Origin: a virus | IMG/VR virus record: IMGVR_UViG_3300024312_000003 | Coordinates: 1-64,000 of that record | Direction: 5' to 3' (one strand) | DNA: 64,000 nucleotides | In this document: positions 8,734 to 52,718 of the stretch, piece after piece | Numbering within the stretch: the stretch's first letter is position 1 | How the letters are laid out: each line of letters starts with the position of its first letter | The notes under the pieces: generated by a model | Database searches by the model: none | The model's input: the letters and a program-made list of their open reading frames with translations, nothing else | Told to the model about the DNA's origin: nothing | Program-made: the position numbers and the translations under genes

Positions 8734-8765
8734 GGCATAAAGAGGGGAATTCCCCTCTTTATGCC
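8734..8765. repeat. 32-bp perfect palindrome, copy 1 (bidirectional terminator-like)
   Basis: GGCATAAAGAGGGGAATTCCCCTCTTTATGCC fills the gap between convergent stop codons. Confidence 0.95.
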
Positions 8766-9893
8766 TTAAAGATTGTTTGCGAGATTGACAAGAAGTTTCT
8801 CACCTATTTTTGCAAGCAATCTCGGATCTGCTGTTTTCTTCTTAACTGGAGGATTATAGGCATTAGCCATTCTGGCTCTTATCCCTACAGCTGGGAAAAA
8901 CCTAGCGATTTCAGCTTCTACAGTCGTTTGATTTCCGTAATGTAGAATGAGTGCGTAGTTTTTTCTTCTATCAAAATCAGATTCGGACTTTATACCGCGA
9001 AGAATAATGTCTTTAAAAGCCTGACTGCTTTTCTGCAATTTTACAATCGACATTCCTGTTATTTCATTACCTGGAACGTATCCGTTTTTATGCACATGCA
9101 CGTCCCAGTTTGAATTTGCAGCAGACAATATTCCTAAGACTGCATGATAGTCTACATTCTGATCAAAAATATCAGTTAACTTCTTATAACCAAACGCACC
9201 TGCTAAATCTTGAGCAAAGTTAGGATATATGAAATCTAGTGATTTACCTAATTGCCCGTTAGCAAATGTAGATAATGAAGTTAGATCACTATTTTTGATC
9301 ATGTCTGGGAATGAATTTTTGAGAACTCTATTTAGAATTCTGCCAGACATTCCGTTTGTCAATTGTGGTAGTAAACCATTGAGTCCTAGAGAATATGCTT
9401 CTCTAGCTATACCGCTTACAAGACCAGCAACGGCGTCCTCATCGACAATTTCGTAAAGAGGAGATTTAACGTAATCGTTAACGAATTTACCAACTGCATT
9501 TAATCCAGGTATATCAGCGTCTTTAACATACTGGACAATGCCGTTTATCTTAACTCCAACTTCACCAAAATCCTCAAAGCTAGATATTACCTTTTCTTTT
9601 GCATCTTTGCTAAGATCTCTGAAAGAACTGGTAATGCTTTTAGAAGAAGTGACAAGTCTTAAAGCAAGAGCGTCTTTATCGACAGTAACTCCAGTCTTTG
9701 TTACAGACAAGAGCTTTCCAACTTCAGCATTTTGAATACCAGACAATAACGTTTTAACGTCAAGTCCTGCTTTACTACTGATTTCTTGAATACTGGTTAT
9801 TACTTTTTTACTGTCGACTTTATAGATGTCAGCCGCAGCTAACTGATCTCTTGGACCAGTGCTAAATATTGGTTGTACTAAAGGTTGTGACAT
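8766..9893 (-). CDS. Hypothetical protein, probably virion-associated
   Basis: 375-aa ORF with ATG at 9893; no catalytic motif recognised. Confidence 0.7.
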   Translation of the reverse strand: MSQPLVQPIFSTGPRDQLAAADIYKVDSKKVITSIQEISSKAGLDVKTLLSGIQNAEVGKLLSVTKTGVTVDKDALALRLVTSSKSITSSFRDLSKDAKEKVISSFEDFGEVGVKINGIVQYVKDADIPGLNAVGKFVNDYVKSPLYEIVDEDAVAGLVSGIAREAYSLGLNGLLPQLTNGMSGRILNRVLKNSFPDMIKNSDLTSLSTFANGQLGKSLDFIYPNFAQDLAGAFGYKKLTDIFDQNVDYHAVLGILSAANSNWDVHVHKNGYVPGNEITGMSIVKLQKSSQAFKDIILRGIKSESDFDRRKNYALILHYGNQTTVEAEIARFFPAVGIRARMANAYNPPVKKKTADPRLLAKIGEKLLVNLANNL

Positions 9894-9914
9894 TTTTAGT
9901 CCCGATTAACTTTA

Positions 9915-10088
9915 CTACATCATATCGTTCGAATCCGGATTAAGAACTTTATGCAGTATAATCAGAAACATTAAACAAACATCAGCAATTATTTTAACCA
10001 AGAACAAACTACCAATAATAGTAATAATCGAAATCCCAATTGCTAAATTGATACATGCTCTCAGAATATCAGTTATCAGATTAAACAA
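9915..10088 (-). CDS. Small membrane protein (57 aa), not in the ORF track
   Basis: TTG start overlapping the upstream stop, with a purine-rich RBS (AAGGTAGGGA). Translation: MFNLITDILRACINLAIGISIITIIGSLFLVKIIADVCLMFLIILHKVLNPDSNDMM, with two hydrophobic segments. Confidence 0.55.
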   Translation of the reverse strand: MFNLITDILRACINLAIGISIITIIGSLFLVKIIADVCLMFLIILHKVLNPDSNDMM

Positions 10089-10491
10089 TCTTTATCCCTA
10101 CCTTATTTAGAAAATCAGCAACAACAACAGATATCCTTAAGGAAATACTTTTGGAAGTATTGATTGGTTTTAATTCCTCTTCCACCTTGCTTAACAAGAG
10201 TGAGACATCTGTATTTGTGTAGTTTATCTTTCTTCTGTACTTCTTACGAAACTCATCGTCGCTACCGTAGGATAGGTTATCACCATTAATAACCAACCAC
10301 ATACCTGGTTCTATCGTTATTTTCTCTTTATTGAAAAAGAATTTAATTAGATTCTGCTCAACCCCATAGAAGATATAAGGTCTTTCAACGTTTGTGTTGT
10401 TTTTTAGAAAATCTAATACTTGTTCAGGATTTGATCCCGTCGAATCAAATTTAACTGCCAAGACTTGTACTGGTATTGTTTCGAATTGCAT
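10081..10491 (-). CDS. Hypothetical protein resembling the widespread phage K.PV.IEA.../PGDW family
   Basis: FETIPVQVLAVKF...EPGMWLV...DDEFRKKY pattern; start trimmed to the ATG at 10491. Confidence 0.5.
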   Translation of the reverse strand: MQFETIPVQVLAVKFDSTGSNPEQVLDFLKNNTNVERPYIFYGVEQNLIKFFFNKEKITIEPGMWLVINGDNLSYGSDDEFRKKYRRKINYTNTDVSLLLSKVEEELKPINTSKSISLRISVVVADFLNKVGIKIV

Positions 10492-10531
10492 TTTAGTATT
10501 TATAATCAAAAAAAAAAAATAATAAAGAAAA

Positions 10532-10563
10532 ATATAGGACTGTGAGAAATCACAGTCCTATAT
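10532..10563 (-). terminator. Terminator hairpin followed by a T12 tract on the minus strand
   Basis: ATATAGGACTGTGA-GAAA-TCACAGTCCTATAT, 14-bp stem; A12 at 10508-10519. Confidence 0.8.
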
Positions 10564-11101
10564 ATCTCATTTTGCATTCATTCCAATAAGACGGAGTCGT
10601 CTTTGTTTTTAAACATTTTCTTATATCTTCCAGTCCTTCTACTAACCAGTCACAATCCTTAACAGGAATGATGTGGTTTTTAGACTCACCAGTTTTCTTA
10701 TCTTGGTATTCGATAACGTAATGATGAGTAAAAGGTAAATCTGATAGACATAGCAATTCTCTCAGCTTTTTATTCTGTAGAATTTTTTGACAATTCGCAT
10801 AAAGGATATCTTCCTTAAAGAAAGGTATCTCGTGCTTTTGAAATGTCTTTCCAAGCTGCTTGGCTTTATAACCGTGCAGCTGTCTAAGATGTTCTATTCC
10901 GTCTTGGATGTGTCCGTACGGGGCTCCGGATTTTAAATAATACCAGAACCCCTCCATAGATTGAAATGGTCCGAAGTAGGGATGCGTGAATGGTGATTTG
11001 TCAAAGTGCGACAACATTCGACCCAACTCAGTCTTTCCCTTACTGTAAACATTAATATGGTTTATACCATCCCTGTCTACAGTTATTTCGGAATCAACCA
11101 T
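10550..11101 (-). CDS. NADAR/YbiA-fold protein (T4 gp30.3-like)
   Basis: LSHF..SPF....FQSMEGFWYYLK...LRQLHGYKAKQLGK...QKILQNKKLRELL fits the NADAR pattern. The likely start is the ATG at 11101, overlapping the upstream stop; the track's extension to 11320 lies inside the neighbouring gene. Confidence 0.65.
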   Translation of the reverse strand: MVDSEITVDRDGINHINVYSKGKTELGRMLSHFDKSPFTHPYFGPFQSMEGFWYYLKSGAPYGHIQDGIEHLRQLHGYKAKQLGKTFQKHEIPFFKEDILYANCQKILQNKKLRELLCLSDLPFTHHYVIEYQDKKTGESKNHIIPVKDCDWLVEGLEDIRKCLKTKTTPSYWNECKMRYIGL

Positions 11102-11741
11102 AGTGGACACCAACAGTTGTGCTGGTTGATTCATTAGCCGCCGGGCTGTCGCTGAACGTCTCGACTGGACTAGTCGTTTTATCAATATCAACTTGTTCCA
11201 AGATGATTTGATTAATCTTAGGTTGTTCAACCTCAGGTTTCTGTTCGTTGTTTTCTTTAGTAGAGTAATCCGTGGTAATTGGATTGAGATATTTCTTCTC
11301 AGCCTTTTCAATCTCATCAATGATCGGGAAGGCTTTTGGTTCTTGATATGCTGTATTGACGTCTACCAAGTGAGATACTTCTACAATTTTGTTATTCTCG
11401 AACTGAGCAACGATGATGATGCGGAAGCGTTTTACTTTCAAAAACATCATTGCTTTAACAAAGACTTTCCAAGTCATTGTTTTTCTTAGGAATTCTTTAT
11501 TTAGATTACCGCGTATGCTGGCAATGTCTCTTGGATTGTTTCGATGAATTGCTTCACGTAGAGCATAATCTTTGATATAAGTATACCAAAGCTCATGTCC
11601 CATACCCATTGACAATACTAGCTCTTTGAATAAAGTAGTCAGAACTGTCGGAATGGAGCTAGACTTACCAACACCGCGATCTGGATTATGCAGTAGATCA
11701 CGAAGGGTTTGTTGTTGGAATTTCTTCTTTGCTCGAAACAT
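11094..11741 (-). CDS. Conserved phiKZ-like hypothetical protein
   Basis: 215 aa with RGNLNKEFLRKTMTWKVFVKAMMFL, a motif I recall from phiKZ-like core genes. Confidence 0.6.
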   Translation of the reverse strand: MFRAKKKFQQQTLRDLLHNPDRGVGKSSSIPTVLTTLFKELVLSMGMGHELWYTYIKDYALREAIHRNNPRDIASIRGNLNKEFLRKTMTWKVFVKAMMFLKVKRFRIIIVAQFENNKIVEVSHLVDVNTAYQEPKAFPIIDEIEKAEKKYLNPITTDYSTKENNEQKPEVEQPKINQIILEQVDIDKTTSPVETFSDSPAANESTSTTVGVHYG

Positions 11742-11775
11742 TTTAGCTTCCTTAATAAGACGACTAAAGAGTTTA

Positions 11776-12354
11776 TTACTGATTTGTCGAACAATAAACT
11801 ATTCCTCTAACTATGCTTGTTAGAGAAATAATCACTGGAGATAGCGTTCGTAGATTGTGTTCTTCAACTCCATATTCTACATCGTTATAGTTAGCTATAC
11901 ACTCTGTGAAATTTTCAATCGATTTTACAAGTTCCGGTAGTTTACTACTTGGAATATATCTGCCAGAACCATCGATAAATAGTAAATCGAGATATTGATT
12001 TTCTATTTTAACATTATACCTTATTGCATCGTAGGTGGTATATTCAATAATCGAACTTGTTATTGCGTTTAGTTTGCTAATTAGCTCTGTAAAGTTATTT
12101 GAAAAAGTTAGAACCATCAAGATGGATCCTTTCTTAGGATCGTAGTTTTTCAGATCTACACTTGATAGCGATTCTACAGCTTTTACCAAATCTTCTTTCT
12201 TTTGATAATTAGTATATTCGATTGGTGAGCTTTGCGATTCTACATATACACCACTTTCTCTGTAAGGAGTTGGAAGTATAAGATTCGTCACAAAATTGAA
12301 AAATGATTGTTTAAAAATTGCGATCATTTTTGCTAAATTAAAGGTTGTACTCAT
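11776..12354 (-). CDS. Hypothetical protein
   Basis: 192-aa ORF with ATG at 12354. Confidence 0.65.
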   Translation of the reverse strand: MSTTFNLAKMIAIFKQSFFNFVTNLILPTPYRESGVYVESQSSPIEYTNYQKKEDLVKAVESLSSVDLKNYDPKKGSILMVLTFSNNFTELISKLNAITSSIIEYTTYDAIRYNVKIENQYLDLLFIDGSGRYIPSSKLPELVKSIENFTECIANYNDVEYGVEEHNLRTLSPVIISLTSIVRGIVYCSTNQ

Positions 12355-12402
12355 GTTTTATACATTTAATGTGAATGTCGATCATGTGCTACATACTACA
12401 TG

Positions 12403-12420
12403 AGTGATATGTAACTATAT
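12403..12420 (-). promoter_or_regulatory. Putative early (virion-RNAP) promoter motif
   Basis: Minus strand reads ATATAGTTACATATCACT, similar to the phiKZ early consensus TATATTAC. TACATATCACT recurs exactly at 63855-63865. Confidence 0.4.
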
Positions 12421-12450
12421 ACTTTTGTATTATAAGAATTGGAAAAAATC

Positions 12451-12927
12451 ATGTCTGTTAATAACGAAATCGCCAATATGGAAGTATTAGACGATGATCA
12501 AGCGCTAGCTTTTACACAGAAAGCTAGAAGAAAGATTGTTAGTAAAATATTGGAAAAGGGAGAAATCCCTGAAGATAAAGGAGAACAAATAATGTTACTT
12601 CAAGCTCTAGACGGAATGGATAGAGCTGCTCTAGGTAATAAGAGAATTAAAGCGGATGAGAAGGCCAGCGATGCTCTTGGTGATTCGTCTGCTCTCATAG
12701 CGCAAATGCTCACTCAAATGGCAGGTAATGTTAAACTTGCTAAGTCTGAAGATATAGTTGATGTGGAAGCAAAAGACATAACTGCTCCTGCTTTACCAGA
12801 TACAATACCTGATCCGATACTGGTGCCTGGAGAAACAACCATAGGCGCTCCACAATTAGATTATGATTCATTCATGAACAGCATGAACGGTAGAGAAATT
12901 CCACAACTCACCGATGACGATCAATAA
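12451..12927 (+). CDS. Hypothetical protein
   Basis: 158 aa from the ATG at 12451, with GGA upstream; helical, acidic. Confidence 0.7.
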   Translation: MSVNNEIANMEVLDDDQALAFTQKARRKIVSKILEKGEIPEDKGEQIMLLQALDGMDRAALGNKRIKADEKASDALGDSSALIAQMLTQMAGNVKLAKSEDIVDVEAKDITAPALPDTIPDPILVPGETTIGAPQLDYDSFMNSMNGREIPQLTDDDQ

Positions 12928-12959
12928 GGCATAAAGAGGGGAATTCCCCTCTTTATGCT
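12928..12959. repeat. 32-bp palindrome, copy 2 (31/32 match)
   Basis: GGCATAAAGAGGGGAATTCCCCTCTTTATGCT; its arm supplies the TAA stop of the minus-strand gene ending at 12953. Confidence 0.95.
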
Positions 12960-13684
12960 GTTGCTTTTTTAAAAGCATTCAACATCTTTTTACTTATGCT
13001 GAATACGGAGGTGTCTATTATTTTTAGACCAATTAATGGAGCGATGCTAAGCTCCATTGTTTTAAATGGATTCAGGTTATCCCTTTTGAATTCAGCTATT
13101 TTTTCTTCGCTTGGCTCGCAATCATAATAGAGAGATGGAGCTATAAAAATGACCGCAGGGATCGGCTTTGATACAAGATTATTTTGTTGAATATGCAGCC
13201 AGTCTGCAAAGTCATACTTAATGATCATGCAATAATTTTTCTTTATGAATTCTGGAGTTAAATCATCATTACTCATGCTGATTAATTCAACATCAGAACA
13301 ACCGTGATTTAATTGAAATATGACATCTCGCATTTCTTCAATTTCGTCAGGTTCTAATTCATAAGGAAATATATTCACAGTCAATGGATGACCTAGATTC
13401 TGACCACCTTTCATGTTTTCAATCACAGCTTCTTTTACAGTGGTGTGAATGATTTCAAATGTTTCAGTTATTAAACTAAAGGGAAGAATGTCTGCTGTTC
13501 TCTTTGAATAAAGTTCTTTAAATTCAGAAGCACTTATTCCTGGGAATTTATCGATGAATCTTTTATGATAATCAGAGTTAAGAACATCGACCGCTTTATC
13601 AGCGTCTAAACTTGCGAGCAAACCCATTCTTGTATCTAAAAGACTATCTAGGTCTATGTAGATTTTTGTGTTTTGCTCACTCAT
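12953..13684 (-). CDS. Hypothetical protein, possible HAD-like fold
   Basis: 243 aa; N-terminal IYIDLDSLLDT resembles HAD motif I. Confidence 0.55.
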   Translation of the reverse strand: MSEQNTKIYIDLDSLLDTRMGLLASLDADKAVDVLNSDYHKRFIDKFPGISASEFKELYSKRTADILPFSLITETFEIIHTTVKEAVIENMKGGQNLGHPLTVNIFPYELEPDEIEEMRDVIFQLNHGCSDVELISMSNDDLTPEFIKKNYCMIIKYDFADWLHIQQNNLVSKPIPAVIFIAPSLYYDCEPSEEKIAEFKRDNLNPFKTMELSIAPLIGLKIIDTSVFSISKKMLNAFKKATA

Positions 13685-13685
13685 G

Positions 13686-14150
13686 TTATTTCTTTTCCAT
13701 GCTTTCCAATATATCTTTGTAAAAGATAATCAGGAGAACAAAAGTAACCAGCCATTTATTTCTTTTAAGAGCATCTTCAACTTCTCTCTGGCTTGGTAGT
13801 CTGTCGTTTATTTCTTTAGGAATGAGAGACTGCGTTTGCTCTTCCTCAGAAACAGTCATTGAATGACAGAGAATATCAATCATTGCATCTTGATCAAAAT
13901 TACCACTGTTGAACAATGTCTGAAATCTAATGGTGGTGTTAAGAATGTAATCTCTATTAACCGCAGCGCTGAACACAGAATCAACAGTTGTACGAAGACC
14001 GATTGCGCTTGGGATCAGATAAAGATTTAAACCACAAGCACTGTTTAAAAGAAAGGCTTGTACTTTATTTCTCACATCACCAATGTAAGTTTCAATGGTT
14101 GATTTGTGTGCTGAAACAATGCAGTCTCTTAGAAAATCATTAAGTTCCAT
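13686..14150 (-). CDS. Hypothetical protein
   Basis: 154-aa ORF, tightly packed in the operon. Confidence 0.7.
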   Translation of the reverse strand: MELNDFLRDCIVSAHKSTIETYIGDVRNKVQAFLLNSACGLNLYLIPSAIGLRTTVDSVFSAAVNRDYILNTTIRFQTLFNSGNFDQDAMIDILCHSMTVSEEEQTQSLIPKEINDRLPSQREVEDALKRNKWLVTFVLLIIFYKDILESMEKK

Positions 14151-14160
14151 TATTGTTTCC

Positions 14161-14847
14161 TTAATTATTAAGTAGTGTGTTTCTTAAATGCATTGCTGTA
14201 AGATACGAACTAAGTGTAGTGGTAGCTTTGACTTTGGTGCCCAGTTTATCCAAATAACTCAAACTAACACCGCCGGTTTTATTGATAGAGTCATTCATCG
14301 CATTAAAACCATTCAAATCACCACCGCGATACTTTATCAATTCAGTGATTGTGTCGTCTAGTTGCAATGCTGCTAGAATCTGAAGTTCTGGATAGGATAT
14401 CTTACTTCCTTTAGACGAACCTGTGGGTTGACCAGTCATGTGATCAATTGAACGATTATCTTCTGGAATACTGATCTTTTTAATCAGGAGCTGTGCTTGT
14501 CTACGAAGCGGTAGATCTACTACTAAATATTTTTTAGTAGTTAGGAATCTACCATTGCCTTTAGGATCTTCCATCCATATCTTCTCAAAGAACTCATGGC
14601 CTAGTTCCTCAGCAATTTTCAAATTGTTATCTATTGAGATTTTTTTATCTGATAGATTAGGAACAATTATGGCTAATCTACTTTTGCCAGTAGCAATATC
14701 TTGCATCAATTGATCGAAGGCAATATCGTCAAGAGACTCAAATAGATTTTTATAAATCTTTGTATTTTCACTACCTGGTAGTAATTTTTCAATATGGTCG
14801 ATTATGAACTTTTCGACTATTTTTCTATTGGACATATTCATCACCAT
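14161..14847 (-). CDS. rpoB: Virion RNA polymerase beta subunit, C-terminal part (phiKZ gp149-like)
   Basis: SIDHMTGQPTGSSKGSKISYPELQILAA...ELIKYRGGD parallels the RpoB C-terminal TQQPLGGK...GEMEVWAL...EMLTVKSDD. Confidence 0.8.
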   Translation of the reverse strand: MVMNMSNRKIVEKFIIDHIEKLLPGSENTKIYKNLFESLDDIAFDQLMQDIATGKSRLAIIVPNLSDKKISIDNNLKIAEELGHEFFEKIWMEDPKGNGRFLTTKKYLVVDLPLRRQAQLLIKKISIPEDNRSIDHMTGQPTGSSKGSKISYPELQILAALQLDDTITELIKYRGGDLNGFNAMNDSINKTGGVSLSYLDKLGTKVKATTTLSSYLTAMHLRNTLLNN

Positions 14848-14872
14848 TGATTTTAAGACATAACATTAACAT

Positions 14873-15304
14873 TCATGTCTTTGGAATGAATAGATAGTTT
14901 TTAACGTTTCTTTTCTTTAGCTCACTTAACATGTGTTGTGTACCTGGACTTACACCATCCCAAATAAGAAATGCTAAATTGACAACTTTAGACATCTCTG
15001 TATTTCTTATACTTCCGGCTGATTTACCATAGTAATCCCAAAAAGCCCGATAGTAGAAACAAGGTAAATTGTGTTTCTTACAAAACTCAATTATTAAAGT
15101 ATCTACTCCCGGTGCTTTTCCAGACACAAAACAAAAATCTCGACCTTTTAGATATCTCAAAACACCCAACATCTTCTTCTCGAAGTAATCCCAATCATTA
15201 TAGGATCTACTACCAGCAACAAGAACTCGATATTGAAAACTATCTATTAATCGGTCTTCTATGTTAACGCCTTCTCGTTTTCTTTCTGGCGGCGGCCCTT
15301 GCAT
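14873..15304 (-). CDS. YspA-related SLOG family (DUF2493-like) protein
   Basis: VLVAGSRSYND...VSGKAPGVDT...YGKSAGSIRN.EM...WDGVSPGTQHM. The start is uncertain; the ATG at 15304 was chosen. Confidence 0.8.
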   Translation of the reverse strand: MQGPPPERKREGVNIEDRLIDSFQYRVLVAGSRSYNDWDYFEKKMLGVLRYLKGRDFCFVSGKAPGVDTLIIEFCKKHNLPCFYYRAFWDYYGKSAGSIRNTEMSKVVNLAFLIWDGVSPGTQHMLSELKKRNVKNYLFIPKT

Positions 15305-15503
15305 TCTGTTTGTGTGATGATTTTGCTTTGCGTGCATACTTACTAGGCTTATCTTCAAAGTCACCAGACTGACAAGGAGATTCAGGATCCGGCAAATCTT
15401 CAATTTCCAAGTCGGATTCATCCTGTTTAATGTGTGATTGTGCTTGTCCTGTATTCATAGCTACCGCAGCCATTGTTGCTAGTCTTAGAAGTTCAGATCG
15501 CAT
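15264..15503 (-). CDS. Small protein with acidic middle and basic C-terminus
   Basis: 79 aa ending ARAAARKKTRRR. Confidence 0.55.
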   Translation of the reverse strand: MRSELLRLATMAAVAMNTGQAQSHIKQDESDLEIEDLPDPESPCQSGDFEDKPSKYARKAKSSHKQNARAAARKKTRRR

Positions 15504-15532
15504 TTTACTTGTGATCGGTTAAAAGTATGTAA

Positions 15533-15563
15533 AATAAAAGAGGGGAATTCCCCCTCTTTTATT
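15533..15563. repeat. Variant of the 32-bp palindrome (terminator-like)
   Basis: AATAAAAGAGGGG-AATTC-CCCCTCTTTTATT between co-oriented minus-strand genes. Confidence 0.85.
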
Positions 15564-15879
15564 ACGTCTTGAATTTAGGCAAATCAAATTCAACAATACT
15601 AGGAATGACGCTTTCTTTCAAAAGCTTCTCCCATGTACGGTTATCGCCACCATCCACAATACAAAACCTCTCAAAGGGAGCGGCTTTTGGAGCATCCGCT
15701 AGTGTCAGTCTGAGCGCTCTATTTACAAGAAAACGCTTATGACCACTCTCGACATTATGGACATTTGGATCTAGAAGCTTTTGCCATCTTTTTGGTTCAG
15801 AGTGACCAGCTTCAGCCATTAGCTTGTCAACGACGGCTATTGGATCTATTGATTCTTCTACGTTTGATAATTCATTCAT
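15562..15879 (-). CDS. Hypothetical protein
   Basis: 105-aa ORF directly downstream of uvsX. Confidence 0.7.
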   Translation of the reverse strand: MNELSNVEESIDPIAVVDKLMAEAGHSEPKRWQKLLDPNVHNVESGHKRFLVNRALRLTLADAPKAAPFERFCIVDGGDNRTWEKLLKESVIPSIVEFDLPKFKT

Positions 15880-15880
15880 T

Positions 15881-17359
15881 TTATTCGACGATTACTACGC
15901 CAGTTGTTTCTGTTGAAATTTGTCCTACAGTCAATGGTTTGATTGTAGGTGATTTAATTTTTGATCTTTGTTCTTCGGTGAACCAATATGGAATATATTG
16001 ACCAACACGCATTTTAAGAAGATCCATGGTACTCAAAAACGGAGTGTTGTTAGTACCTTCAAGAGCCCACCAACCTCTAGTGTTGAGAAGAATCTTCCAA
16101 TCATAACCTAGAGCTATCAGATCATCGTAGAGTTGCTTAGGTGTGCACATCAGTTCTTCAGGAATATGGTGCCATAGATCATTAATCTGACACATTTCTG
16201 AAGTGATGTTCAGAGCCCTTCGCAATTCTGGGTGAGCATCAATTTTTCGACGAACAGTTGTTCTAGACAGCTTGATATCTGGCAAAAGAGATAGGTAATA
16301 GTTTTGAAGAGTACCTTCAATGCCGTACCTGTCTGTTGACTTGATATAGTGAAACTCAGTCAAGCTTGGAAGTACCCCGTCTTGCTGTGAAACAATTAGT
16401 TTCATAGCCATGCCCGAAGGACCAGACTTACTTCTGAGTTGACGAATTGTCACTTCGTTTAGATCTGTGTCACCTTTGAGATCGTCGTCAGAATCTCGAG
16501 GATATTCTGGCGCTTTGGTGGTATCGTTACGAAGAGGAGCAGCGTTATAGCAAAGCCAACAATTGTTCATCACAAAAGTGAACTTTTCCGGAACACCTTT
16601 GAGCTTAACACCTTGAGGAATGTGTTGTAGTTTCTTAGGAGCAGGTGCTCTAGGATCCATATTGAACTCAGACCCGATGTGTGCAGTCATCAGTGTGTAT
16701 GAGTATGTACCGCCAGATAGCGCAGGGATCTCCATCAAGAATCGATTCTTTTGAAGACCTTGACGCATTGATACTGTGTTAGCACCAGATTCACCAAGAC
16801 TGTTTTCGTCCTGCATCTTAATGACGTCTTGAGTGACGAATTCACTAAGTGAATCGATCTCAGAGAAAGACGGCATTGTAATTTCTAGATTACCGGTCTT
16901 TTCACGATTCCAAAAAGGAGTCTTAACGGTGTACTTAACCGCGTTCTTCTTTTTGTCATTCATGAATTCTTTTAGAATATCAAAGTATTGATCACCTTGA
17001 TAAACTGTCTTATCAGTAATGGTCCACCGACCTGATTCCAGAATATCTTCACCACCGAATTCTTCAATATTGGCAATCATCCTCTTGAGATGCCATTCAT
17101 GGATGTTAATCTCGGTGTCGTAGGTATTACCCATTGATCCAACGATTCTCGACATGGCGGTAAACGACATGTAGTGCATTACGGTGGATTTAAAGTTATT
17201 ACCAATACCAACCACACCAGTTAGAAAACCAAGACCACCATTGAGAATACTCTCCCCGTGTCGTCCAGTCACATATGTACCTGTCGGAATATCGAGACAG
17301 GCGCCTACGTTAATCATCACCTTTATTGGTGGGGCTGCTTTAAAAGGATTAATTAGCAT
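15881..17359 (-). CDS. uvsX: UvsX/RecA-like recombinase (phiKZ gp152-like)
   Basis: Variant Walker A GVVGIGNNFKST, YDTE motif, IDSLSEF Walker B; 492 aa. Confidence 0.85.
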   Translation of the reverse strand: MLINPFKAAPPIKVMINVGACLDIPTGTYVTGRHGESILNGGLGFLTGVVGIGNNFKSTVMHYMSFTAMSRIVGSMGNTYDTEINIHEWHLKRMIANIEEFGGEDILESGRWTITDKTVYQGDQYFDILKEFMNDKKKNAVKYTVKTPFWNREKTGNLEITMPSFSEIDSLSEFVTQDVIKMQDENSLGESGANTVSMRQGLQKNRFLMEIPALSGGTYSYTLMTAHIGSEFNMDPRAPAPKKLQHIPQGVKLKGVPEKFTFVMNNCWLCYNAAPLRNDTTKAPEYPRDSDDDLKGDTDLNEVTIRQLRSKSGPSGMAMKLIVSQQDGVLPSLTEFHYIKSTDRYGIEGTLQNYYLSLLPDIKLSRTTVRRKIDAHPELRRALNITSEMCQINDLWHHIPEELMCTPKQLYDDLIALGYDWKILLNTRGWWALEGTNNTPFLSTMDLLKMRVGQYIPYWFTEEQRSKIKSPTIKPLTVGQISTETTGVVIVE

Positions 17360-17466
17360 TCTTTCCTCTTTATGAGTAAAGTGAGTGTTCGTATCAATAT
17401 ATAGAAATATCTAGTAATTTTGTGACATATCTACTCTACACCTATCGCTTAGAATAGGAACATCAC

Positions 17467-18315
17467 ATGAAACACATATCCGTTAATATTCAAAAGACTG
17501 CTCAAGAAGAGCTTTTTACTGCTTGCAATAAGATTGCTTTAGAGTCCTATACCGAAGGTATAGGTATGGAATTTTTTACTGAGAACTTTCAGATAGTAGC
17601 GACAAACATTGAAAAGGTGTTTGACAACAGCTTCGATTTGATAAAAAACTTGTCAGTAACTAAGTTTCTTAAAAACTATACATTTGAATCACAAGTAAGT
17701 AAGATAAATTACGCAGCTATTGATCAGATAAAAATCACAATACCTGAAGGATTTACTGGCAATGCTAAAGAGTATTGTCAAGAATTAATAAAACAAGTAA
17801 GTCACGTATCCACTATCACAACCCAGGTAATACTGCCTTTTAATCAATACATCAGCTCTCTTATATCTGATAAGGATTTTGCAAAGGCATATAAGTCTAA
17901 ACCAGTGTACCTGCATGACAGAGATGCCAAAAGAGAAGAGATGAATAAAACCATTTCTAAGTATTTTGGACACGGTACTCTGTCTTCTGGTAAATTGTCA
18001 CAGCACTATCATTCAGGTGTCGAAGTTGCTGAAACAGACATACTGGTTGGTGAACTCAGCGATTCATTAGGCACTACCGACGTTGTTTCTATTCGTAAGA
18101 TGGTTACTGATTCTGTGGATCTAATTAACGCACTTCAAGATCTTGTATCTAAGAATCAAATAACAAATCTATCTGATTCACAGAAGAGACTTCTTGCTGA
18201 AATGTGCACAACGATTGCTAGGGAAATTGAATTCTATGCAATAACTAGATATCGTGCTGATTCCTTCATCAATACTTTTGCAAAAACAAAAGAAGCTGTA
18301 AAGAAGATTCTTTAA
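17467..18315 (+). CDS. Virion (head) protein (phiKZ gp153-like position)
   Basis: 282 aa; the N-terminus carries A-L-E and G-M-E, matching the S/A/G-X-E prohead-protease motif. Confidence 0.55.
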   Translation: MKHISVNIQKTAQEELFTACNKIALESYTEGIGMEFFTENFQIVATNIEKVFDNSFDLIKNLSVTKFLKNYTFESQVSKINYAAIDQIKITIPEGFTGNAKEYCQELIKQVSHVSTITTQVILPFNQYISSLISDKDFAKAYKSKPVYLHDRDAKREEMNKTISKYFGHGTLSSGKLSQHYHSGVEVAETDILVGELSDSLGTTDVVSIRKMVTDSVDLINALQDLVSKNQITNLSDSQKRLLAEMCTTIAREIEFYAITRYRADSFINTFAKTKEAVKKIL

Positions 18316-18318
18316 GGA

Positions 18319-18360
18319 CATAAATCCCATTTCGCCTTTTGAGCGAAATGGGATTTTATG
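18319..18360. terminator. Bidirectional terminator hairpin
   Basis: AAATCCCATTTCGC / GCGAAATGGGATTT arms between convergent genes. Confidence 0.85.
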
Positions 18361-18364
18361 CAGT

Positions 18365-18757
18365 TCATGCAAAAATTGTTTTATTTGACAGCAACTTCTG
18401 AATGTCTTCAAGCATTTGCTCGTAAGTAGAATACTTGAGACAATTCGGAACAATATCAACAAGACTTTTGGCCAGCGTTTGTTCACAACCTTTCCCATCA
18501 ATACCGCAGATGATGTTTTCAGCGCCTTTGTTTCGCCAAATCACCTTACTAATGTGCACTGGGAACATGATGGCATTATCATCACTGCTCAATTCCATCA
18601 GTTCATTTAATTTCTTTATGGATTCCCTACGGAGTACTTCGTGGTTGACCACCATTCCGTATATTGAAGCCAAAAGAATAAGTCTTTTAGTACGATCGGG
18701 TAAATATGTTTTTAATTTTTCCGATGCCGCATTTTTAAATCTTTCGGTTAGATTCAT
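18365..18757 (-). CDS. Hypothetical protein
   Basis: 130 aa from ATG 18757 (MNLTERF), preceded by GGAAAG. Confidence 0.65.
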   Translation of the reverse strand: MNLTERFKNAASEKLKTYLPDRTKRLILLASIYGMVVNHEVLRRESIKKLNELMELSSDDNAIMFPVHISKVIWRNKGAENIICGIDGKGCEQTLAKSLVDIVPNCLKYSTYEQMLEDIQKLLSNKTIFA

Positions 18758-18813
18758 TTTTCTTTCCGGGATCCTGATTTTTGGCGGAAACAAGATCCCG
18801 CCCAAAAAGATTG

Positions 18814-20346
18814 TTACTTGAAAAAGATGACTCTGGTATTAGAGTCAATCCCAGACCATATCCCAACATCATCACCAGCTTTGATGATTGTTGCGTATCT
18901 AAAGAGATTTTCACCAGCAGACCATGAAACAAAGTAAACCTTTGGATTCTTTGATTCGATTTTCTTAAGAGAATTTCTCTCTAGTGTATCGATGCCGATA
19001 GATAGAGTTATCTCTACATCAGCAGTTCCTCGTTCATTTTTGAACTTACCTTTGACCTTGATTGAAGAACAACCAACTCCAATGCTGGATAGTAATTTTG
19101 TTTCCACTAAAGGTTGAGCTTCTGTGGAATTTTTCTTACCTTGTTTGGTTTGTTGTTCGTATAGCGAATCGGTTATATCGGTCAAAACTATATCGTTTCG
19201 CTCGGTTATAAACGAATCCAATATTTGTCCAAGATCTTCTAAGGACTGATAAGTTCTCTCAGAGAGACGAGGAGGATTTTGTTCCTCAGTTATTGTTGAA
19301 TCGCCTAATGTTTTCAAATCTTTTTTGAAACCAACAGGTGGTTCTATCAGAAGCTCTCCATAGATATTTAGCTTATCATAGATGTTTGCTGAAAAAACCT
19401 TATCTAGGTTAATCACATACATCATGTCCAAGCCATAAATGATTCGACTTTGGAAGTTTCTAATCATTTCAATAACTGGGTCTGGATGAGCTATTTTAAT
19501 AACAGAACCAGTTCTATCACTCATCCGGTTTCCATTCAGATGATTATCCTTACCGTGGTTACCCGTGTAGTAAACACCCGGAGTAATTGTTTCTTGTCGC
19601 GTATTGAAGTAACAATACTTGTTTAAGAAGAAAGGATGTTTTTCATTCACAGACTTCCAGTAACCGTCCGGATCTTTTAGGTCACAAGAGTGATAATCTA
19701 GACTTCTAAGAGCTGTGAATCTACCTATTGTGGCGAGACTATCTGCTCTCTCATTTCCCGTATCACCGTCGTGTCCTTTAACCCATACCATTTTAACAGG
19801 TATGTCCATTGAATCTAATATCTTCTTAGATTCAAGGATTTCTTTCCAGACATCAGTGCTTGCGACTGGATTACCGTCTTTTTTAATCCAGTTTTGACTT
19901 GACCAGATCCTCATCCATTCATTAAATCCTCTGACAGTTAATTCACTATCACTGTTAATGATTGCAAAATCTGGCTTATGTTCTTGAATTATTTTTAGAG
20001 AACGATTCAGAGCCTCGGCTTCCGCTTTATTATTACTGACGTCGTTGATGATTTTAACACCATCTATGACTGTCCCGACTGTTCCGAAAGCATCGATATA
20101 TTTGGTAATCGTTACTGGAAACTTTTGTGTTTCCAAAACAATGGTGTTTTTATCTTGAAAATCAGAAGATTTTACATCAATCAAATCTTCTTTATTAACA
20201 TATCCAACAGAACTAGCAGAAATAGAGCCAAGTCCAATTCCTTTAGTCGGTTCTTTGCATTCAAAGAAATATCCATGAATACCATATCCGGCCTTACCTG
20301 GGTTAGGTTTGACACCACCATCTGCGTAAAGAACTATTCCGTTCAT
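18814..20346 (-). CDS. rnhA: Ribonuclease HI with C-terminal extension (phiKZ gp155-like)
   Basis: LYADGGVKPNPG, SNNKAE, INSDSE, WVKGHDGDTGNERADSLA catalytic motifs. Confidence 0.92.
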   Translation of the reverse strand: MNGIVLYADGGVKPNPGKAGYGIHGYFFECKEPTKGIGLGSISASSVGYVNKEDLIDVKSSDFQDKNTIVLETQKFPVTITKYIDAFGTVGTVIDGVKIINDVSNNKAEAEALNRSLKIIQEHKPDFAIINSDSELTVRGFNEWMRIWSSQNWIKKDGNPVASTDVWKEILESKKILDSMDIPVKMVWVKGHDGDTGNERADSLATIGRFTALRSLDYHSCDLKDPDGYWKSVNEKHPFFLNKYCYFNTRQETITPGVYYTGNHGKDNHLNGNRMSDRTGSVIKIAHPDPVIEMIRNFQSRIIYGLDMMYVINLDKVFSANIYDKLNIYGELLIEPPVGFKKDLKTLGDSTITEEQNPPRLSERTYQSLEDLGQILDSFITERNDIVLTDITDSLYEQQTKQGKKNSTEAQPLVETKLLSSIGVGCSSIKVKGKFKNERGTADVEITLSIGIDTLERNSLKKIESKNPKVYFVSWSAGENLFRYATIIKAGDDVGIWSGIDSNTRVIFFK

Positions 20347-20393
20347 GCAAATCTCTTAATAAGTTTAATCACAATAATTACAGAGTTAGTAAA

Positions 20394-20849
20394 TTAGTTC
20401 TTACAGCTCTTAAGATGGTCGACCATTGATTGGTTATACTTCTTCAGAACAAGAAGATACTGCTGTCTTGTTTTCTTAATGTGATCTAGTAGTTTTTTAA
20501 TTATTTCTTGATCATTAAGATTCATTATTTCTGAAGAATCAATGATGATTTCTGGCGGAATTTCCGGTTTCTGGAACTTACGACAACCAACAAATATCTT
20601 AGCTATCTTATCTTCAGTTTTTGTTTTGTTCTCATTTTTATTTTCTATCGGTTTTTCTTCAGAATGTTTTATTACAGGTGGTGTTTTTACAACACTCTCA
20701 TCTTTAACATCTGTTTTAAGAACTATTATTTCCTTCAATGGTTGCGTCTGGCCATTGAAGGAAATGGTGCTATTTATAGCACATCCTGGCAATGTTAAAA
20801 AAGTCAAGAAAGATATGACGTACTTTAACAAACCGTATTTATTGATCAT
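20394..20849 (-). CDS. Lipoprotein, possible o-spanin-like
   Basis: Signal peptide with lipobox LTLPG-C; Pro-rich GCRKFQKPEIPP segment followed by a helix. Confidence 0.55.
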   Translation of the reverse strand: MINKYGLLKYVISFLTFLTLPGCAINSTISFNGQTQPLKEIIVLKTDVKDESVVKTPPVIKHSEEKPIENKNENKTKTEDKIAKIFVGCRKFQKPEIPPEIIIDSSEIMNLNDQEIIKKLLDHIKKTRQQYLLVLKKYNQSMVDHLKSCKN

Positions 20850-23523: not shown

Positions 23524-23555
23524 GGCATAAAGAGGGGAATTCCCCTCTTTATGCC
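23524..23555. repeat. 32-bp perfect palindrome, exact copy
   Basis: Identical to 8734-8765; between convergent genes. Confidence 0.95.
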
Positions 23556-24624: not shown

Positions 24625-27114
24625 ATGAAACTAAACTACATAGAGCTATTCAAATACAAAAGAATGGCTTTGAATAACATTACGTTGATTCGCATAACTC
24701 CAGAAACAAAGGTACAAACAATTCTGGGAACAAACGGAAGCGGTAAATCTTCTCTGCTATCAGAGATGACTCCTCTTCCTTCTAGTAAAGATAATTTTCA
24801 TAAAGACGGATACAAGAAAATTAGCTATACCCATAACGGTAAAGAATATTTTCTATCCAGCGTATTTCATCCGGCTCAAAGACATTCTTTTAAAATCGGA
24901 CAAGACGGTGAAGAACTTAATCCAGGTGGAACCGTTACTGTTCAGAAAGAATTGGTATTTCAACACTTCGGTATCAAGCAGCATCATCACGACTTGATAA
25001 CGGGTGTTGAAAAATTCACAACCATGTCTCCAATCCGAAGAAGAGAATGGTTGACTGAGCTTTGTGATGAAAATTACGATTATGCTCTAGTCGTCTATTC
25101 GAGAGCAAGAGAAAAGCAAAGAGATATATCTGGAGCTTTAAAGCTTGCTAAGAAAAGACTCGTGTCTGAGCAAACTAAACTAATCCACGAAGAAGACATC
25201 AAACGTCTTAAAGATCAGATATCTGCTCTTGCACTGGACATTGATAAAATTTATCAAATAAGGAACGATAATCCTAAAACAGTACAGGATGTTCTTGATG
25301 ATAAACAATCTATCGAAAATCTTATACAATCGTATTCAAAAGAAGCTTTTAAGATTCTCGCCGTTATCGGTAAGAAAGCAAACTTCATATCTTCCGAATA
25401 CGATGAGTGTATAACGATTAAGAGAGAAGAAATTGCTCAGATTCAAACTAAGATCACTATAAGTAATCAAGAGTATCAAGATCTTAGCGAATACATGGCG
25501 CAGTTCAAGACGGAGGGTGGTTCTGATGGATCTGATCTAGATGAAAATATGAGAAGGCATCTAGAACGCCGTAAAACACTCTCTAGCGCGATTAAAACAC
25601 AAGTTCCAATACTCGATGCCAATACTGCAATTTTTGCTTTAGAGAGCATTTATGAAGATTTGATGAGTATCTTAGTTAATCTTCCGATAAACGAAGAGGA
25701 TTACTATACTCAATCAAAAATAGATTCTTATAAACAATCTATAAATTCTGACAAAGAAAAACTATTCGACTATGAGAATAGAATCAATCGCCTTGCTCAT
25801 GAAAAAGAACACTATGACGCTTTAGAAAATAGCGATAGTGTTGATTGTCCTAAATGCAGTCATAAATGGGTAGTCGGATACAGTAAGAAGAAACATGATG
25901 AATTAAAAAACATCATAATTAAAGGAACTGAAGCAATCCAGGCTCTTAAGAAAAGAATCGAAGAGAATAATCAAAAATTACAAGAGCAAGAAGATTACTT
26001 CGATAATTTCTCCAAGGTTTTTAATTCTTTCAGGTCTGCTCCTGTTTTGAAACCACTATGGGAAGAGCTAATAAATTCAGACATCTTAAAGAAATCACCG
26101 TTCAACGCTATTCGAATGATTGAGCTTTATAAATCAGACGTTAGTAGAACTGTAGAGATTGAAACAATCAATAAGGATGTTGAGCGATTAGGTCATCTTA
26201 TTGAAATTAGGAATAAGGCCAATTCAGAAGACTCCATTAAGGCTAAGACTAGAATTGATCATGTTGAGAAATATCTGGGTGAATTAAACAGACAGCTTCA
26301 TAAGGCAAAGAATGAACTGAGTGAATTGATTGATTACCGAAACGGCATTGTCGAATTAGAAAAAATTCAAGATCAATTATTGAAACTCTCTAAAGAACAT
26401 TCGAATAGCTCGCTCGAAGCTCTGGAAGTTTTGAGAAACGAAATAGCTACAGAGTGCCTTAAGAAATTACAAATTGAACTAGCTCAGAAGAATGCGATCT
26501 TGACTGACGCAATGATGCAAAATAACATCATTGCTGACATAGAACGAAACATCAAGTTTTATGAAGAGCAACTAAGTATCGCGGATGCTGTCGTTGAGGC
26601 ACTGTCTCCAACCGAAGGATTGATAGCGGAAGGATTATTGGGGTTTATAAAGTCTTATGTTTCTAAAATGAACATTTTGATATCCAGAATATGGACTTAC
26701 AGAATGGAAGTTCAAGATTGTAAAGACGCTGATTCTGAATCTGCCGAACTAGACTACAAATTTCCAGTAATCATTCAATCGGATGATAATAGGATTCCGG
26801 ATGTATCTAAATGCAGTACCGGTCAAAGAGAAATCATCGATCTTTCATTTAAGATTGTTGCGATGAATTATCTTGGTATGTCTAATTTTCCTTTGGTTTT
26901 AGATGAGTTGGGTTCAGCAATGGATCCAGAACATCGCTTCCAAGTCGTGCATCTTATAAACTTCCTGATTGAGCAGTGTTCTTTTAGCCAGTTGTTTATT
27001 GTAAGTCACGATTATGCTCAGTATGGATCTTTGGGCAATATGCAAACTTGTGTTATCTGTCCAAACAACATCGTTGTGCCTGATAAATATAACGAACACG
27101 TTGTTATTAGCTGA
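24625..27114 (+). CDS. sbcC: SbcC/Rad50-like ATPase (phiKZ gp165-like); strand corrected to +
   Basis: ATGAAACTAAAC reads on + at 24625. Walker A GTNGSGKSS, CPKC hook, signature STGQRE, Walker B LVLDELG, H-loop IVSH. Confidence 0.93.
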   Translation: MKLNYIELFKYKRMALNNITLIRITPETKVQTILGTNGSGKSSLLSEMTPLPSSKDNFHKDGYKKISYTHNGKEYFLSSVFHPAQRHSFKIGQDGEELNPGGTVTVQKELVFQHFGIKQHHHDLITGVEKFTTMSPIRRREWLTELCDENYDYALVVYSRAREKQRDISGALKLAKKRLVSEQTKLIHEEDIKRLKDQISALALDIDKIYQIRNDNPKTVQDVLDDKQSIENLIQSYSKEAFKILAVIGKKANFISSEYDECITIKREEIAQIQTKITISNQEYQDLSEYMAQFKTEGGSDGSDLDENMRRHLERRKTLSSAIKTQVPILDANTAIFALESIYEDLMSILVNLPINEEDYYTQSKIDSYKQSINSDKEKLFDYENRINRLAHEKEHYDALENSDSVDCPKCSHKWVVGYSKKKHDELKNIIIKGTEAIQALKKRIEENNQKLQEQEDYFDNFSKVFNSFRSAPVLKPLWEELINSDILKKSPFNAIRMIELYKSDVSRTVEIETINKDVERLGHLIEIRNKANSEDSIKAKTRIDHVEKYLGELNRQLHKAKNELSELIDYRNGIVELEKIQDQLLKLSKEHSNSSLEALEVLRNEIATECLKKLQIELAQKNAILTDAMMQNNIIADIERNIKFYEEQLSIADAVVEALSPTEGLIAEGLLGFIKSYVSKMNILISRIWTYRMEVQDCKDADSESAELDYKFPVIIQSDDNRIPDVSKCSTGQREIIDLSFKIVAMNYLGMSNFPLVLDELGSAMDPEHRFQVVHLINFLIEQCSFSQLFIVSHDYAQYGSLGNMQTCVICPNNIVVPDKYNEHVVIS

Positions 27115-27115
27115 T

Positions 27116-27151
27116 ACGGCATAAAGAGGGGAATTCCCCTCTTTATGCCGT
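27116..27151. repeat. 32-bp perfect palindrome, exact copy extended to 36 bp
   Basis: AC-GGCATAAAGAGGGGAATTCCCCTCTTTATGCC-GT between convergent genes. Confidence 0.95.
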
Positions 27152-33425: not shown

Positions 33426-33457
33426 AGCATAAAGAGGGGAATTCCCCTCTTTATGCC
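33426..33457. repeat. 32-bp palindrome (31/32 match)
   Basis: AGCATAAAGAGGGGAATTCCCCTCTTTATGCC between convergent genes. Confidence 0.95.
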
Positions 33458-41811: not shown

Positions 41812-41855
41812 GACATATACAGGATAGACCTTAGTGGTCTATCCTGTAATATGCC
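41812..41855. terminator. Bidirectional terminator hairpin
   Basis: TACAGGATAGACC-TTAGT-GGTCTATCCTGTA with an outer CATA/TATG shell; A9 at 41796-41804. Confidence 0.85.
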
Positions 41856-46865: not shown

Positions 46866-46899
46866 GGCATAAACAGGGAGGCTTAGCCTCCCTGTTTAT
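46866..46899 (-). terminator. Terminator after the major capsid gene
   Basis: ATAAACAGGGAGGC-TTA-GCCTCCCTGTTTAT with a GGCATAAA shell. Confidence 0.85.
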
Positions 46900-51431: not shown

Positions 51432-51432
51432 A

Positions 51433-51909
51433 ATGAAAAAACTACTTAATAAACTAGTCACTAAGTTTTTTAAATGGATCGAATATGAAGGCATCATCGG
51501 TCCCCCTGGACCTCCCGGACCACAAGGATTGCGTGGTTTAGATGCCAAAGTACCAGATATCAACAAACATCCCGGATATACAACCATGTGTCCTTTTAAC
51601 ACTAAGGGGGATGGTTTGGGAATTGAAACAATTAACATAGATTGTAACTTCACTTCCTATTGCTTCAATCTGGAGAAGAATAAGGAATATATTCTTTCCT
51701 TTATTAATTACCCGCAAGAGCAATTTGCAGTAACTAAAATAAAATTACTGTTCATCAAATGTAAAGGCGGGTATATCAAGTTTGGTGACAATATTGTTTT
51801 TAATTCACCTTCTGAAATGCCGATATTTAAAGAAGGTTCAACTGTTGTTTTGGAAGTTATGACAATGGACGGTGTTACGTGGTATGCTAAAACAATTCAT
51901 GGATATTGA
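51433..51909 (+). CDS. Small protein with a short collagen-like segment
   Basis: 158 aa from ATG 51433; GIIGPPGPPGPQGLRGLD, then a beta-rich C-terminal domain. Confidence 0.7.
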   Translation: MKKLLNKLVTKFFKWIEYEGIIGPPGPPGPQGLRGLDAKVPDINKHPGYTTMCPFNTKGDGLGIETINIDCNFTSYCFNLEKNKEYILSFINYPQEQFAVTKIKLLFIKCKGGYIKFGDNIVFNSPSEMPIFKEGSTVVLEVMTMDGVTWYAKTIHGY

Positions 51910-51943
51910 TGTTGATCCTATGAAATAAATAGGAGAATCTTCC

Positions 51944-52684
51944 ATGTCTAAGAAACAATTAGAAGACCACATATTGACTTACCCAGATTCAAAGTCAAAA
52001 GAACTCACGGTATTTACAAGAGATGAAATCGGTGAACTCTACCACATCTCTAAAGATACTACTATCAGAGAATTTACACCAAGATTCTCTAAAAGACAAA
52101 TGAGTACTGAAGACATAACCATATCTAGAGTTGTTAGTTGCCCAACAATTTATGGTTGTATACTTGCATATTCATCTATGCATGCCGATTATACGAATCT
52201 AATCACTAAAATAAATGACAAAGATTCAACGTGGAAAGGTGGGTATGTCATTTATAGATTGGATTACGAGTTTGGATTGAGTCCGAGTTCTAAATTGGTT
52301 CCTGATGTAAATTATACCGATGAAAAATGGTTAGTTGCTTACAATGAATTAACCAAAGGATACAGACCGACTAAGGTAGGTAAGATCTTTGCACAACAAA
52401 TTACATATAAGCCAACTGATGACAAATTACCAACCATAGAAAGCATTTTGTTTATTGAGGTCAATGATTCTAAAGGTATTCAGTTAAGTAAGAATATAAA
52501 ACTGGATAAAGGCTACTGGATTATTGAATTGCCAATATGGGATCATCAATCGTGGAAAAATCTATCTTTTAAGAACGATAATAACATTGTTGTTAAGCAG
52601 ATAAACAGAGATGAATGGTTGTCTAATAAAGATGTCGTAGCAAGCATGCTTTCCGCAGAAGCTCCATCTTATTTTAATTGGTAG
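51944..52684 (+). CDS. Hypothetical, probable virion protein
   Basis: 246 aa, AGGAG RBS. Confidence 0.65.
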   Translation: MSKKQLEDHILTYPDSKSKELTVFTRDEIGELYHISKDTTIREFTPRFSKRQMSTEDITISRVVSCPTIYGCILAYSSMHADYTNLITKINDKDSTWKGGYVIYRLDYEFGLSPSSKLVPDVNYTDEKWLVAYNELTKGYRPTKVGKIFAQQITYKPTDDKLPTIESILFIEVNDSKGIQLSKNIKLDKGYWIIELPIWDHQSWKNLSFKNDNNIVVKQINRDEWLSNKDVVASMLSAEAPSYFNW

Positions 52685-52718
52685 GGCATAAAGAGGGGAT
52701 TTCCCCTCTTTATGCCCT
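52683..52718. repeat. 32-bp palindrome (31/32 match, loop ATTT), arms extended to 16 bp
   Basis: AGGGCATAAAGAGGGG-ATTT-CCCCTCTTTATGCCCT between convergent genes. Confidence 0.95.

Follow-up and report, generated by a model that had tools for sequence, protein, structure and literature searches.

The palindrome and its positions

The stretch of DNA considered here (the window) is the first 64 kb (64,000 nucleotides) of the IMG/VR virus record IMGVR_UViG_3300024312_000003, hereafter G000, which is 180,490 bp long, has a G+C content of 38.5% and is estimated to be ~65% complete. Judging from its gene content, the source is an uncultured phiKZ-like jumbo phage: it encodes homologues of phiKZ gp181 and gp182, a major capsid protein, a piece of an RNA polymerase (RNAP) beta subunit, UvsX, SbcC and DnaB (labels from PHROG matches and comparison with phiKZ), and 48 of its 242 open reading frames (ORFs) match phiKZ. 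Samples carrying this lineage come from river and waste water. The element in question is a 32-bp palindrome, GGCATAAAGAGGGGAATTCCCCTCTTTATGCC, which occupies six of the eight junctions between convergent genes in the window; the remaining two hold other hairpins (Table 1). The flanking genes are ORF-level calls supported by PHROG or by an uncultured relative, G002, that is introduced below.

A first-pass annotation of the window had reported three exact copies, three with one mismatch and a variant at 15533, and every one of them was recovered. A mismatch scan of the window places the exact copies at 8734, 23524 and 27118, while the copies at 12928, 33426 and 52685 depart from the 32-mer in the last base, the first base and the loop (ATTT), respectively. 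These six matches at up to three mismatches compare with a mean of 0 and a maximum of 0 in 100 shuffled sequences. It had also been noticed that the palindrome nearly fills the convergent gaps and that at 12953 an arm supplies a stop codon. Both points are upheld: on ORF-level calls the gaps measure 25–36 nt, and the right arm of copy 12928 contains TTA at 12953–12955, the TAA stop of the minus-strand gene 12953–13684.

The extent of the repeat had been underestimated, as it is not confined to the 44 kb over which the copies were first seen. The whole record contains 10 matches to the 32-mer at up to three mismatches, and 13 copies of the core (GAGGGG-N4-CCCCTC with CATAAA/TTTATG flanks, at most two mismatches) together with one variant at 151288 whose stem changes are compensatory. 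All 14 are intergenic in a genome that is ~92% coding. Seven of them lie at convergent junctions (the site at 33426 being entered as such because the greedy ORF list has a 58-aa ORF there) and seven between minus-strand genes, directly behind stop codons. These classes derive from the greedy ORF list with support from PHROG and G002 and are approximate outside the window; a gene caller with a strand-switch penalty was discarded after it missed the real gene 23557–24555.

Beyond the palindrome the sequence is unrelated from copy to copy. Copies are present in independent metagenome contigs ~99% identical to the record and in contigs of four further runs from four studies, and therefore they are not an assembly artefact; the contigs of those four runs break at every copy, as repeats do. 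A special role for the EcoRI site at the centre of the palindrome was considered and rejected, since GAATTC occurs 104 times in the record against ~60 expected.

Table 1. Copies of the palindrome, other hairpins and adjoining genes in the window
Feature	Position	Strand	Context
Exact copy	8734..8765	both	Junction 6777-8732 (+) / 8766-9893 (-); covers 32 of 33 gap bases
One-mismatch copy	12928..12959	both	Junction 12439-12927 (+) / 12953-13684 (-), gap 25
Variant copy (AATAAAAGAGGGG, loop AATTC)	15533..15563	-	Between two minus-strand genes; 13-bp stem
Exact copy	23524..23555	both	Junction 23194-23523 (+) / baseplate-like 23557-24555 (-), gap 33
Exact copy, extended	27116..27151 (32-mer 27118-27149)	both	16-bp pairing ACGGCATAAAGAGGGG...CCCCTCTTTATGCCGT; behind SbcC-like gene; junction 24625-27114 (+) / 27151-27699 (-), gap 36
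One-mismatch copy	33426..33457	both	5 nt from stop of minus gene 33463-34104; plus-side partner 32163-33188 or unsupported ORF 33047-33424
Copy with loop ATTT and 16-bp stem	52683..52718 (32-mer 52685-52716)	both	Junction 51944-52684 (+) / 52718-55294 (-), gap 33
Other bidirectional terminator hairpin (predicted)	18322..18356	both	Different core, CATAAA/TTTATG flanks as in the copies
Other convergent-junction hairpin	41818..41848	both	Followed by ATATGCCGT
Hairpin GCATAAACAGGGAGGC...	46869..46899	-	Downstream of major capsid gene
Hairpin GCATAAAAACGAAAGG...TTTTTATGC	55397..55433	-	Between minus-strand genes
gp182-like gene (phiKZ gp182 homologue)	6777..8732	+	Stop 1 nt before copy 8734
SbcC-like gene	24625..27114	+	End 3 nt before copy 27118

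A family of hairpins with a shared tail

The copies have perfect stems of 12–16 bp and loops of 4 nt, and their predicted RNAs fold at -27 to -33 kcal/mol with z-scores of -5.8 to -7.6, alike and strongly on both strands (for copy 8734, -31.6 and -27.3 kcal/mol with z-scores of -5.8 and -7.3). TTTATG stands on both sides of all 13 copies. Several loops spoil the palindrome yet keep the hairpin, namely ATTT, AGAT (twice) and, in the related contig G001, AACT.

The palindrome is one allele in a family of 46 hairpins composed of (G)CATAAA, a G-rich arm, a loop, a C-rich arm and TTTATG(CYGT), in which the G-rich arm comes first in 43 cases. Cores intergrade within the family (GAGAGG, GGAGGG, GAGGTAGGG), with both arms altered together. 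The family emerges from a census of the 82 perfect hairpins in the record with stems of at least 10 bp, where TTAT is found in the arm or flank of 46, TTATG in 34 and TTATGYYGT in 16; the baseline from random 20-mers is 11% for TTAT and 1.6% for TTATG. Seen from the tail, 18 of the 21 TATGCYGT sites are directly preceded by a hairpin, as compared with 51 of 300 random sites. According to the first-pass annotation the five other hairpins that it listed all have different stems; their cores do differ, but four of the five (18322, 41818, 46869 and 55397, not 56099) share CATA(A)A...T(T)TATG flanks.

A generic search for bacterial terminators recovers few of these elements. The scan of 8001–28000 flagged copy 12928, on both strands, and the variant at 15533, and it missed 8734, 23524 and 27118, which lack the canonical U-run of at least five T in the eight bases after the stem; only one of the four main copies in that interval is thus recognized. 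Rfam has no family in the window.

Relation to known terminators and to a distant relative

Termination has been mapped in two cultured phages of this group, and both reports bear on the present element. In phiKZ, 133 terminators were mapped by ONT-cappable-seq, 61 of them with the motif BCCYCCCCHWWDGGGRRGGBYTTATKYYGT, and six regions situated between convergent genes are bidirectional (Putzeys et al. 2024, PMC10914365). In 201phi2-1, 132 termination sites were mapped, of which 15 are bidirectional; motif A (n=59) is similar to that of phiKZ. Eight terminators were validated in vivo, and longer stems gave better termination in vivo (PMC11512511).

We also inspected the phiKZ genome directly. 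Its hairpins have the form CATAA-GCCCTCCC-loop-GGGAGGGC-TTATG; the inner stem CCTCCC is common to 28 of them, one identical 16-mer recurs in 11, and one 24-mer has four exact occurrences, a fifth with a single mismatch and four more with three mismatches. The first-pass annotation had taken the near-identity of the copies as something unexpected, and this does not survive the comparison with phiKZ. That phages of this group have quasi-palindromic terminators repeated in nearly identical form is already on record, as the 28 shared cores of phiKZ and the motifs given in the two reports (PMC10914365; PMC11512511) make clear.

Both cultured phages, like the source of G000, are phiKZ-like viruses with a multisubunit RNAP of their own, and all have a stable G/C-rich hairpin with hardly any C in one arm and hardly any G in the other, a loop of ~4 nt, a tail TTAT-K-YY-GT with an upstream CATAA that pairs with it, and one core repeated tens of times per genome at gene ends, in some cases bidirectionally between convergent genes. 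The tails of G000 read TTTATGCCGT or TTTATGCTGT and fit the YTTATKYYGT of the phiKZ motif. What differs is the order of the arms: here GAGGGG...CCCCTC has the G-rich arm first, whereas CCCTCCC...GGGAGGG of phiKZ has the C-rich arm first, so that the CCYCCCC...GGGRRGG part of the mapped motif is reversed. Moreover the copies in G000 are perfect palindromes of 32–36 bp, its identical copies number 13–14 against 28, and it is known from DNA sequence, while RNA ends have been mapped in phiKZ. By analogy the element would resemble the phiKZ motif in its working, but it belongs to a different sequence family. The original observation is real, its interpretation was partly right, and the element is of a known kind.

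Bacterial bidirectional intrinsic terminators offer a second comparison: with an A-tract to one side of it and a T-tract to the other, a single hairpin works for both strands. The copies at convergent junctions likewise have a hairpin and a T-rich tail on both strands. They differ in that the tail is UUUAUGCC in place of a U-run, in that few satisfy the generic scan, in that the sequence is repeated genome-wide, and in that the hairpin abuts or overlaps stop codons.

The comparison can be extended to G002, the nearest near-complete uncultured relative found by alignment-based search (266,566 bp, capsid 53% identical). At all 11 junctions of G002 that match hairpin sites of G000 the most stable 60-nt window has a folding energy of -22 to -40 kcal/mol, energies for which the random-site hairpin figures given above (51 of 300) are the only comparison. 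CATAA...TTATG flanks are present in nine of these 11, where the cores are unique, and the GAGGGG core in none. Hence position and flanks have been kept at ~50% protein identity and the core has not. Identical inner stems form sets of at most 14 in G000, 28 in phiKZ and two in G002, and by this comparison of sequences the identical core is a lineage-specific amplification of one allele.

A probable two-way terminator

Based on these likenesses, we consider it probable (roughly 0.8) that in this phiKZ-like jumbo phage the 32-mer terminates transcription in both directions without the help of a factor. The position of the copies, their fold, the shared motif and the retention of position and flanks in a relative are observed, and it is supported that the copies sit where bidirectional terminators should be; that RNA ends at the element, and which polymerase stops there, we infer. 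RNA from either strand would form a hairpin with a G-rich arm, a 4-nt loop and a C-rich arm (GAGGGG-AAUU-CCCCUC), extended by AUAAA:UUUAU pairs; behind it UUUAUGC(C/U)GU would serve as the conserved terminator tail of the clade in place of a long U-run. RNA 3' ends would be expected a few bases after CCCCUCUUUAUG on both strands. The perfect palindrome is then readily accounted for, since at a convergent junction each strand requires the tail and little is left free to vary.

Several points weigh against this interpretation. The tail UUUAUGCC offers only four U in eight, and by the rule for E. coli the copies would be weak terminators, so that reading them as terminators depends on the analogy with phiKZ. 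The polarity of the stem differs as well: the G-rich arm precedes in 43 of the 46 hairpins of G000, but in phiKZ it is the C-rich arm that precedes, in 81 of 137. Among the listed sequencing runs none is recorded as RNA. Even in phiKZ, mapped 3' ends alone cannot separate termination from processing. The shortage of U and the low yield of the generic scan (one of four main copies) suggest that termination probably relies on a signal of the clade's own.

If the 32-mer is such a terminator, the phiKZ-like terminator grammar, a hairpin with TTATG-YY-GT standing in for the U-run, extends to a distant, uncultured lineage of low G+C content, and annotators could use the motif to mark the ends of transcription units in metagenomic jumbo phages.

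Gene order and alternative explanations

The first-pass annotation had proposed that the copies, any two of which are both direct and inverted repeats, could seed inversions or module swaps, and it suggested synteny breaks relative to phiKZ behind the gp182-like gene and behind sbcC. Those two breaks are real. Gene order departs from that of phiKZ at 8734, 12928, 27118, ~33426, 36700 and 41818. Compared with G002, the 8.8-kb block 18365–27114 is inverted (98.1–107.4 kb of G002), its ends lying at the hairpin 18322 and at copy 27118; the same block is collinear with phiKZ 158–171.6 kb, and since phiKZ has the order seen here the inversion is placed on the G002 side. A difference of ~17 kb separates the two genomes at junction 33426, and synteny ends at 52685. 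A link between breakpoints and the 32-mer in particular is not borne out, as the G002 breakpoints involve three of six palindrome copies and one of two other convergent-junction hairpins. In these alignments breakpoints fall at convergent-junction terminators whatever the core, which is predicted by selection against broken transcription units; the pattern neither needs nor excludes recombination at the repeats.

Differences of this kind bear on a further, improbable explanation, that the element is a terminator–promoter cassette in which TATG is the late-promoter start for the non-virion RNAP and the repeat forms a seam for gene swaps and inversions. Its models are the PeSLs (promoter-early stem-loops) of T4-type phages, which are short, conserved, terminator-containing intergenic repeats at the boundaries of indels and replacements between relatives (PMC4122927). 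TATG is indeed the late promoter of phiKZ, its G being position +1 (PMC4666361); five same-strand copies have the next start codon ~22–64 nt downstream; and copies stand at four of the breaks relative to phiKZ and at three relative to G002. A small rearrangement also separates two 99%-identical strains, whose contigs extend the record past the right end of G000: an ORF of ~300 aa (a 0.9-kb indel, L081 273–1168 versus L082 ~2494–2500) is present in one only, between the stop of the upstream gene and a further palindrome copy. However, half of the copies look onto the 3' end of a convergent gene, and a promoter at such a place could yield nothing but antisense RNA, and TATG shows no excess on the sense strand upstream of genes (52 sense versus 56 antisense in 130 intergenic regions). 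Breaks fall equally at hairpins with other cores (18322 and 41818), and the strain indel abuts a copy on one side without being bracketed by two (four copies are comparable between the strains). A PeSL combines a sigma-70-type early promoter with a stem-loop and has variable genes flanked on both sides. Neither feature was found in the material compared, four copies for the flanked genes and the scan of 8001–28000 for the promoter; as no sigma-70-like promoter adjoins a copy in that scan, the definition of a PeSL does not apply.

Certain contigs join one copy to another (8768>12929, 8769/23553 and 12929/23516). These joints are repeat artefacts of short-word assembly with sides of only 30–34 letters, and they are evidence neither for nor against inversions or circles.

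It is also rather unlikely that the hairpin is an RNA 3'-end protection or processing element, marking or shielding an end left by a nuclease that cuts the A/U-rich tail. Position and fold would be the same as for a terminator, the weak U-run fits a hairpin that does not terminate, and the mapped 3' ends of phiKZ would look alike. Against this, the eight 201phi2-1 terminators, some of which carry the conserved motif, stopped transcription between two reporters in vivo (PMC11512511), and read-through at convergent gaps of 25–36 nt would yield antisense RNA over whole genes.

As one of two options the first-pass annotation named sequence-specific recognition by a phage RNAP or termination factor, a nuclease or a DNA-organising protein. 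The first part of this fits: conservation extends beyond shape to part of the sequence, as TTTATGCYGT matches YTTATKYYGT, which is compatible with recognition by the phage transcription machinery; the nuclease and the DNA-organising protein are unsupported. A perfect 32-bp dyad of nearly invariant sequence is, to be sure, the classic form of a double-stranded DNA site for a dimeric protein such as a repressor, a nucleoid or partition protein or a nuclease. We nevertheless regard such a site as very unlikely, since the loop variants destroy the centre of the dyad while the stems stay paired, the compensatory variants preserve pairing and not sequence, G002 keeps position and flanks but not the core, and the G-first polarity would be meaningless for a symmetric DNA site. 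An insertion of a small mobile palindromic element, similar to a miniature inverted-repeat transposable element (MITE) or a repetitive extragenic palindromic (REP) sequence, would explain many near-identical, sharp-ended copies amid unrelated sequence, but it is extremely improbable: target duplications or terminal repeats beyond the hairpin were not found, the exact 28-mer occurs in only one other IMG/VR contig and at five metagenome loci that belong to strains of this phage or probably to missing parts of it, and the matching G002 junctions already hold a hairpin, which argues for replaced terminators and not insertions.

Identity of the cores

Paralogous genes and strains provide further information on how the cores vary. 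Three tandem paralogous giant genes of 1219, 1223 and 1095 aa lie at 97837–108564 of G000 and have no homologue in G002 or phiKZ. Although these paralogues are only 29–39% identical, the copies standing behind two of them are the same except for the loop and outer bases, and plain co-duplication therefore fails to explain the identity of the copies. Among strains diverged by ~1–3%, the listed changes within copies are loop indels at 8749/8750, 15550 and 27132 (the loop of copy 27118 being 1 nt shorter in strains X2 and X3). Between strains one outermost base of a copy is changed as well. In one 99%-identical strain the loop AGAT is replaced by its reverse complement (G000 169181–169208 versus L079 2501–2528), and nothing else differs over the 90 bases aligned. 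Small inversions of hairpin loops are known from chloroplast DNA. The loop of copy 169187 is similar to these, though it is a single case, in a phage, and copying from a copy in the opposite orientation is also possible.

The paralogue and strain sequences fit selection on pairing together with occasional copying between terminators, and homogenisation of the cores, for which the first-pass annotation suggested conversion mediated by UvsX, is plausible, with indirect support from the unique cores of G002, the terminators of the paralogues and the loop flip. More specifically, the identical core at 13 or more sites may have spread, as the likeliest route, by short-patch copying between terminators that share flanks, within the family of ~46; we put this forward tentatively, at somewhat below even odds.

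A broader proposal joins this to the stop signal itself, and as a whole we think it doubtful: UAUG(YYGU) would be read as a stop by the non-virion RNAP, and the cores would be kept identical by short-patch copying. The beta-lobe of this enzyme has a pocket that binds non-template TATG at late promoters (PMC12809450), and the same pocket would be used at the stop. The polarity of the arms, G-first here and C-first in phiKZ, would reflect co-evolution with the polymerase, and copying would run through the shared flanks of 8–10 bp, with the loop flip as its footprint and inversions at terminators as a by-product. If this were true, transcripts would end and begin with one shared four-base word in place of a U-run.

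Whatever their mechanism, the two parts of the element differ, position and flanks being held over ~50% protein divergence while the core may vary and can be swept to one sequence in some lineages. This contrast, together with the reversed order of the arms, offers a simple design for testing termination by jumbo-phage RNAP in vitro.

Further observations on the phage and its relatives

The nearest cultured capsid protein is 47% identical, and an 85%-identical capsid (P0002) is encoded on a contig of 37,978 bp; when 12 kb were compared with cultured phages by megablast nothing matched, and single-protein locus searches with SbcC and the capsid in IMG/VR gave no relative. The contig G001 (L007–L009; 47,015 bp) comes from samples with 99% strains and has no gene in common with G000. 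It matches phiKZ at 12.9–42.8 kb and 179–189 kb and carries hairpins of the same grammar, among them GCATAAAGAGGGGG-aatt and, twice, GCATAAAAGGGGG-attt; it is probably the part of this phage, or of a sister phage, that the record lacks. In G002 the same hairpin with its flanks is found at both record ends (115–150 and 266459–266494), suggesting either that the repeat is terminal or that the assembly is circularly permuted.

Five paralogous repeat-bearing genes at 139983–147675 of G000 all match one stretch of phiKZ (~147.3–147.7 kb), and palindrome copies or variants at 139304, 142488, 145910 and 147574 are interspersed in this cluster. Some 6-bp palindromes are absent from the record: TACGTA is found 0 times against ~60 expected, GAGCTC, CACGTG and AGGCCT each 0 times against ~23, and CCGCGG 0 times against 9, which looks like restriction-site avoidance or the footprint of base modification. 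The phiKZ-like group is thought to be independent of the host RNAP, and it is therefore odd that a perfect sigma-70 consensus (TTGACA, 17 nt, TATAAT; 12 of 12 bases) is present on the minus strand at 21158–21186, at the start of the minus-strand gene 20839–21186 in the divergent region beside 21226.

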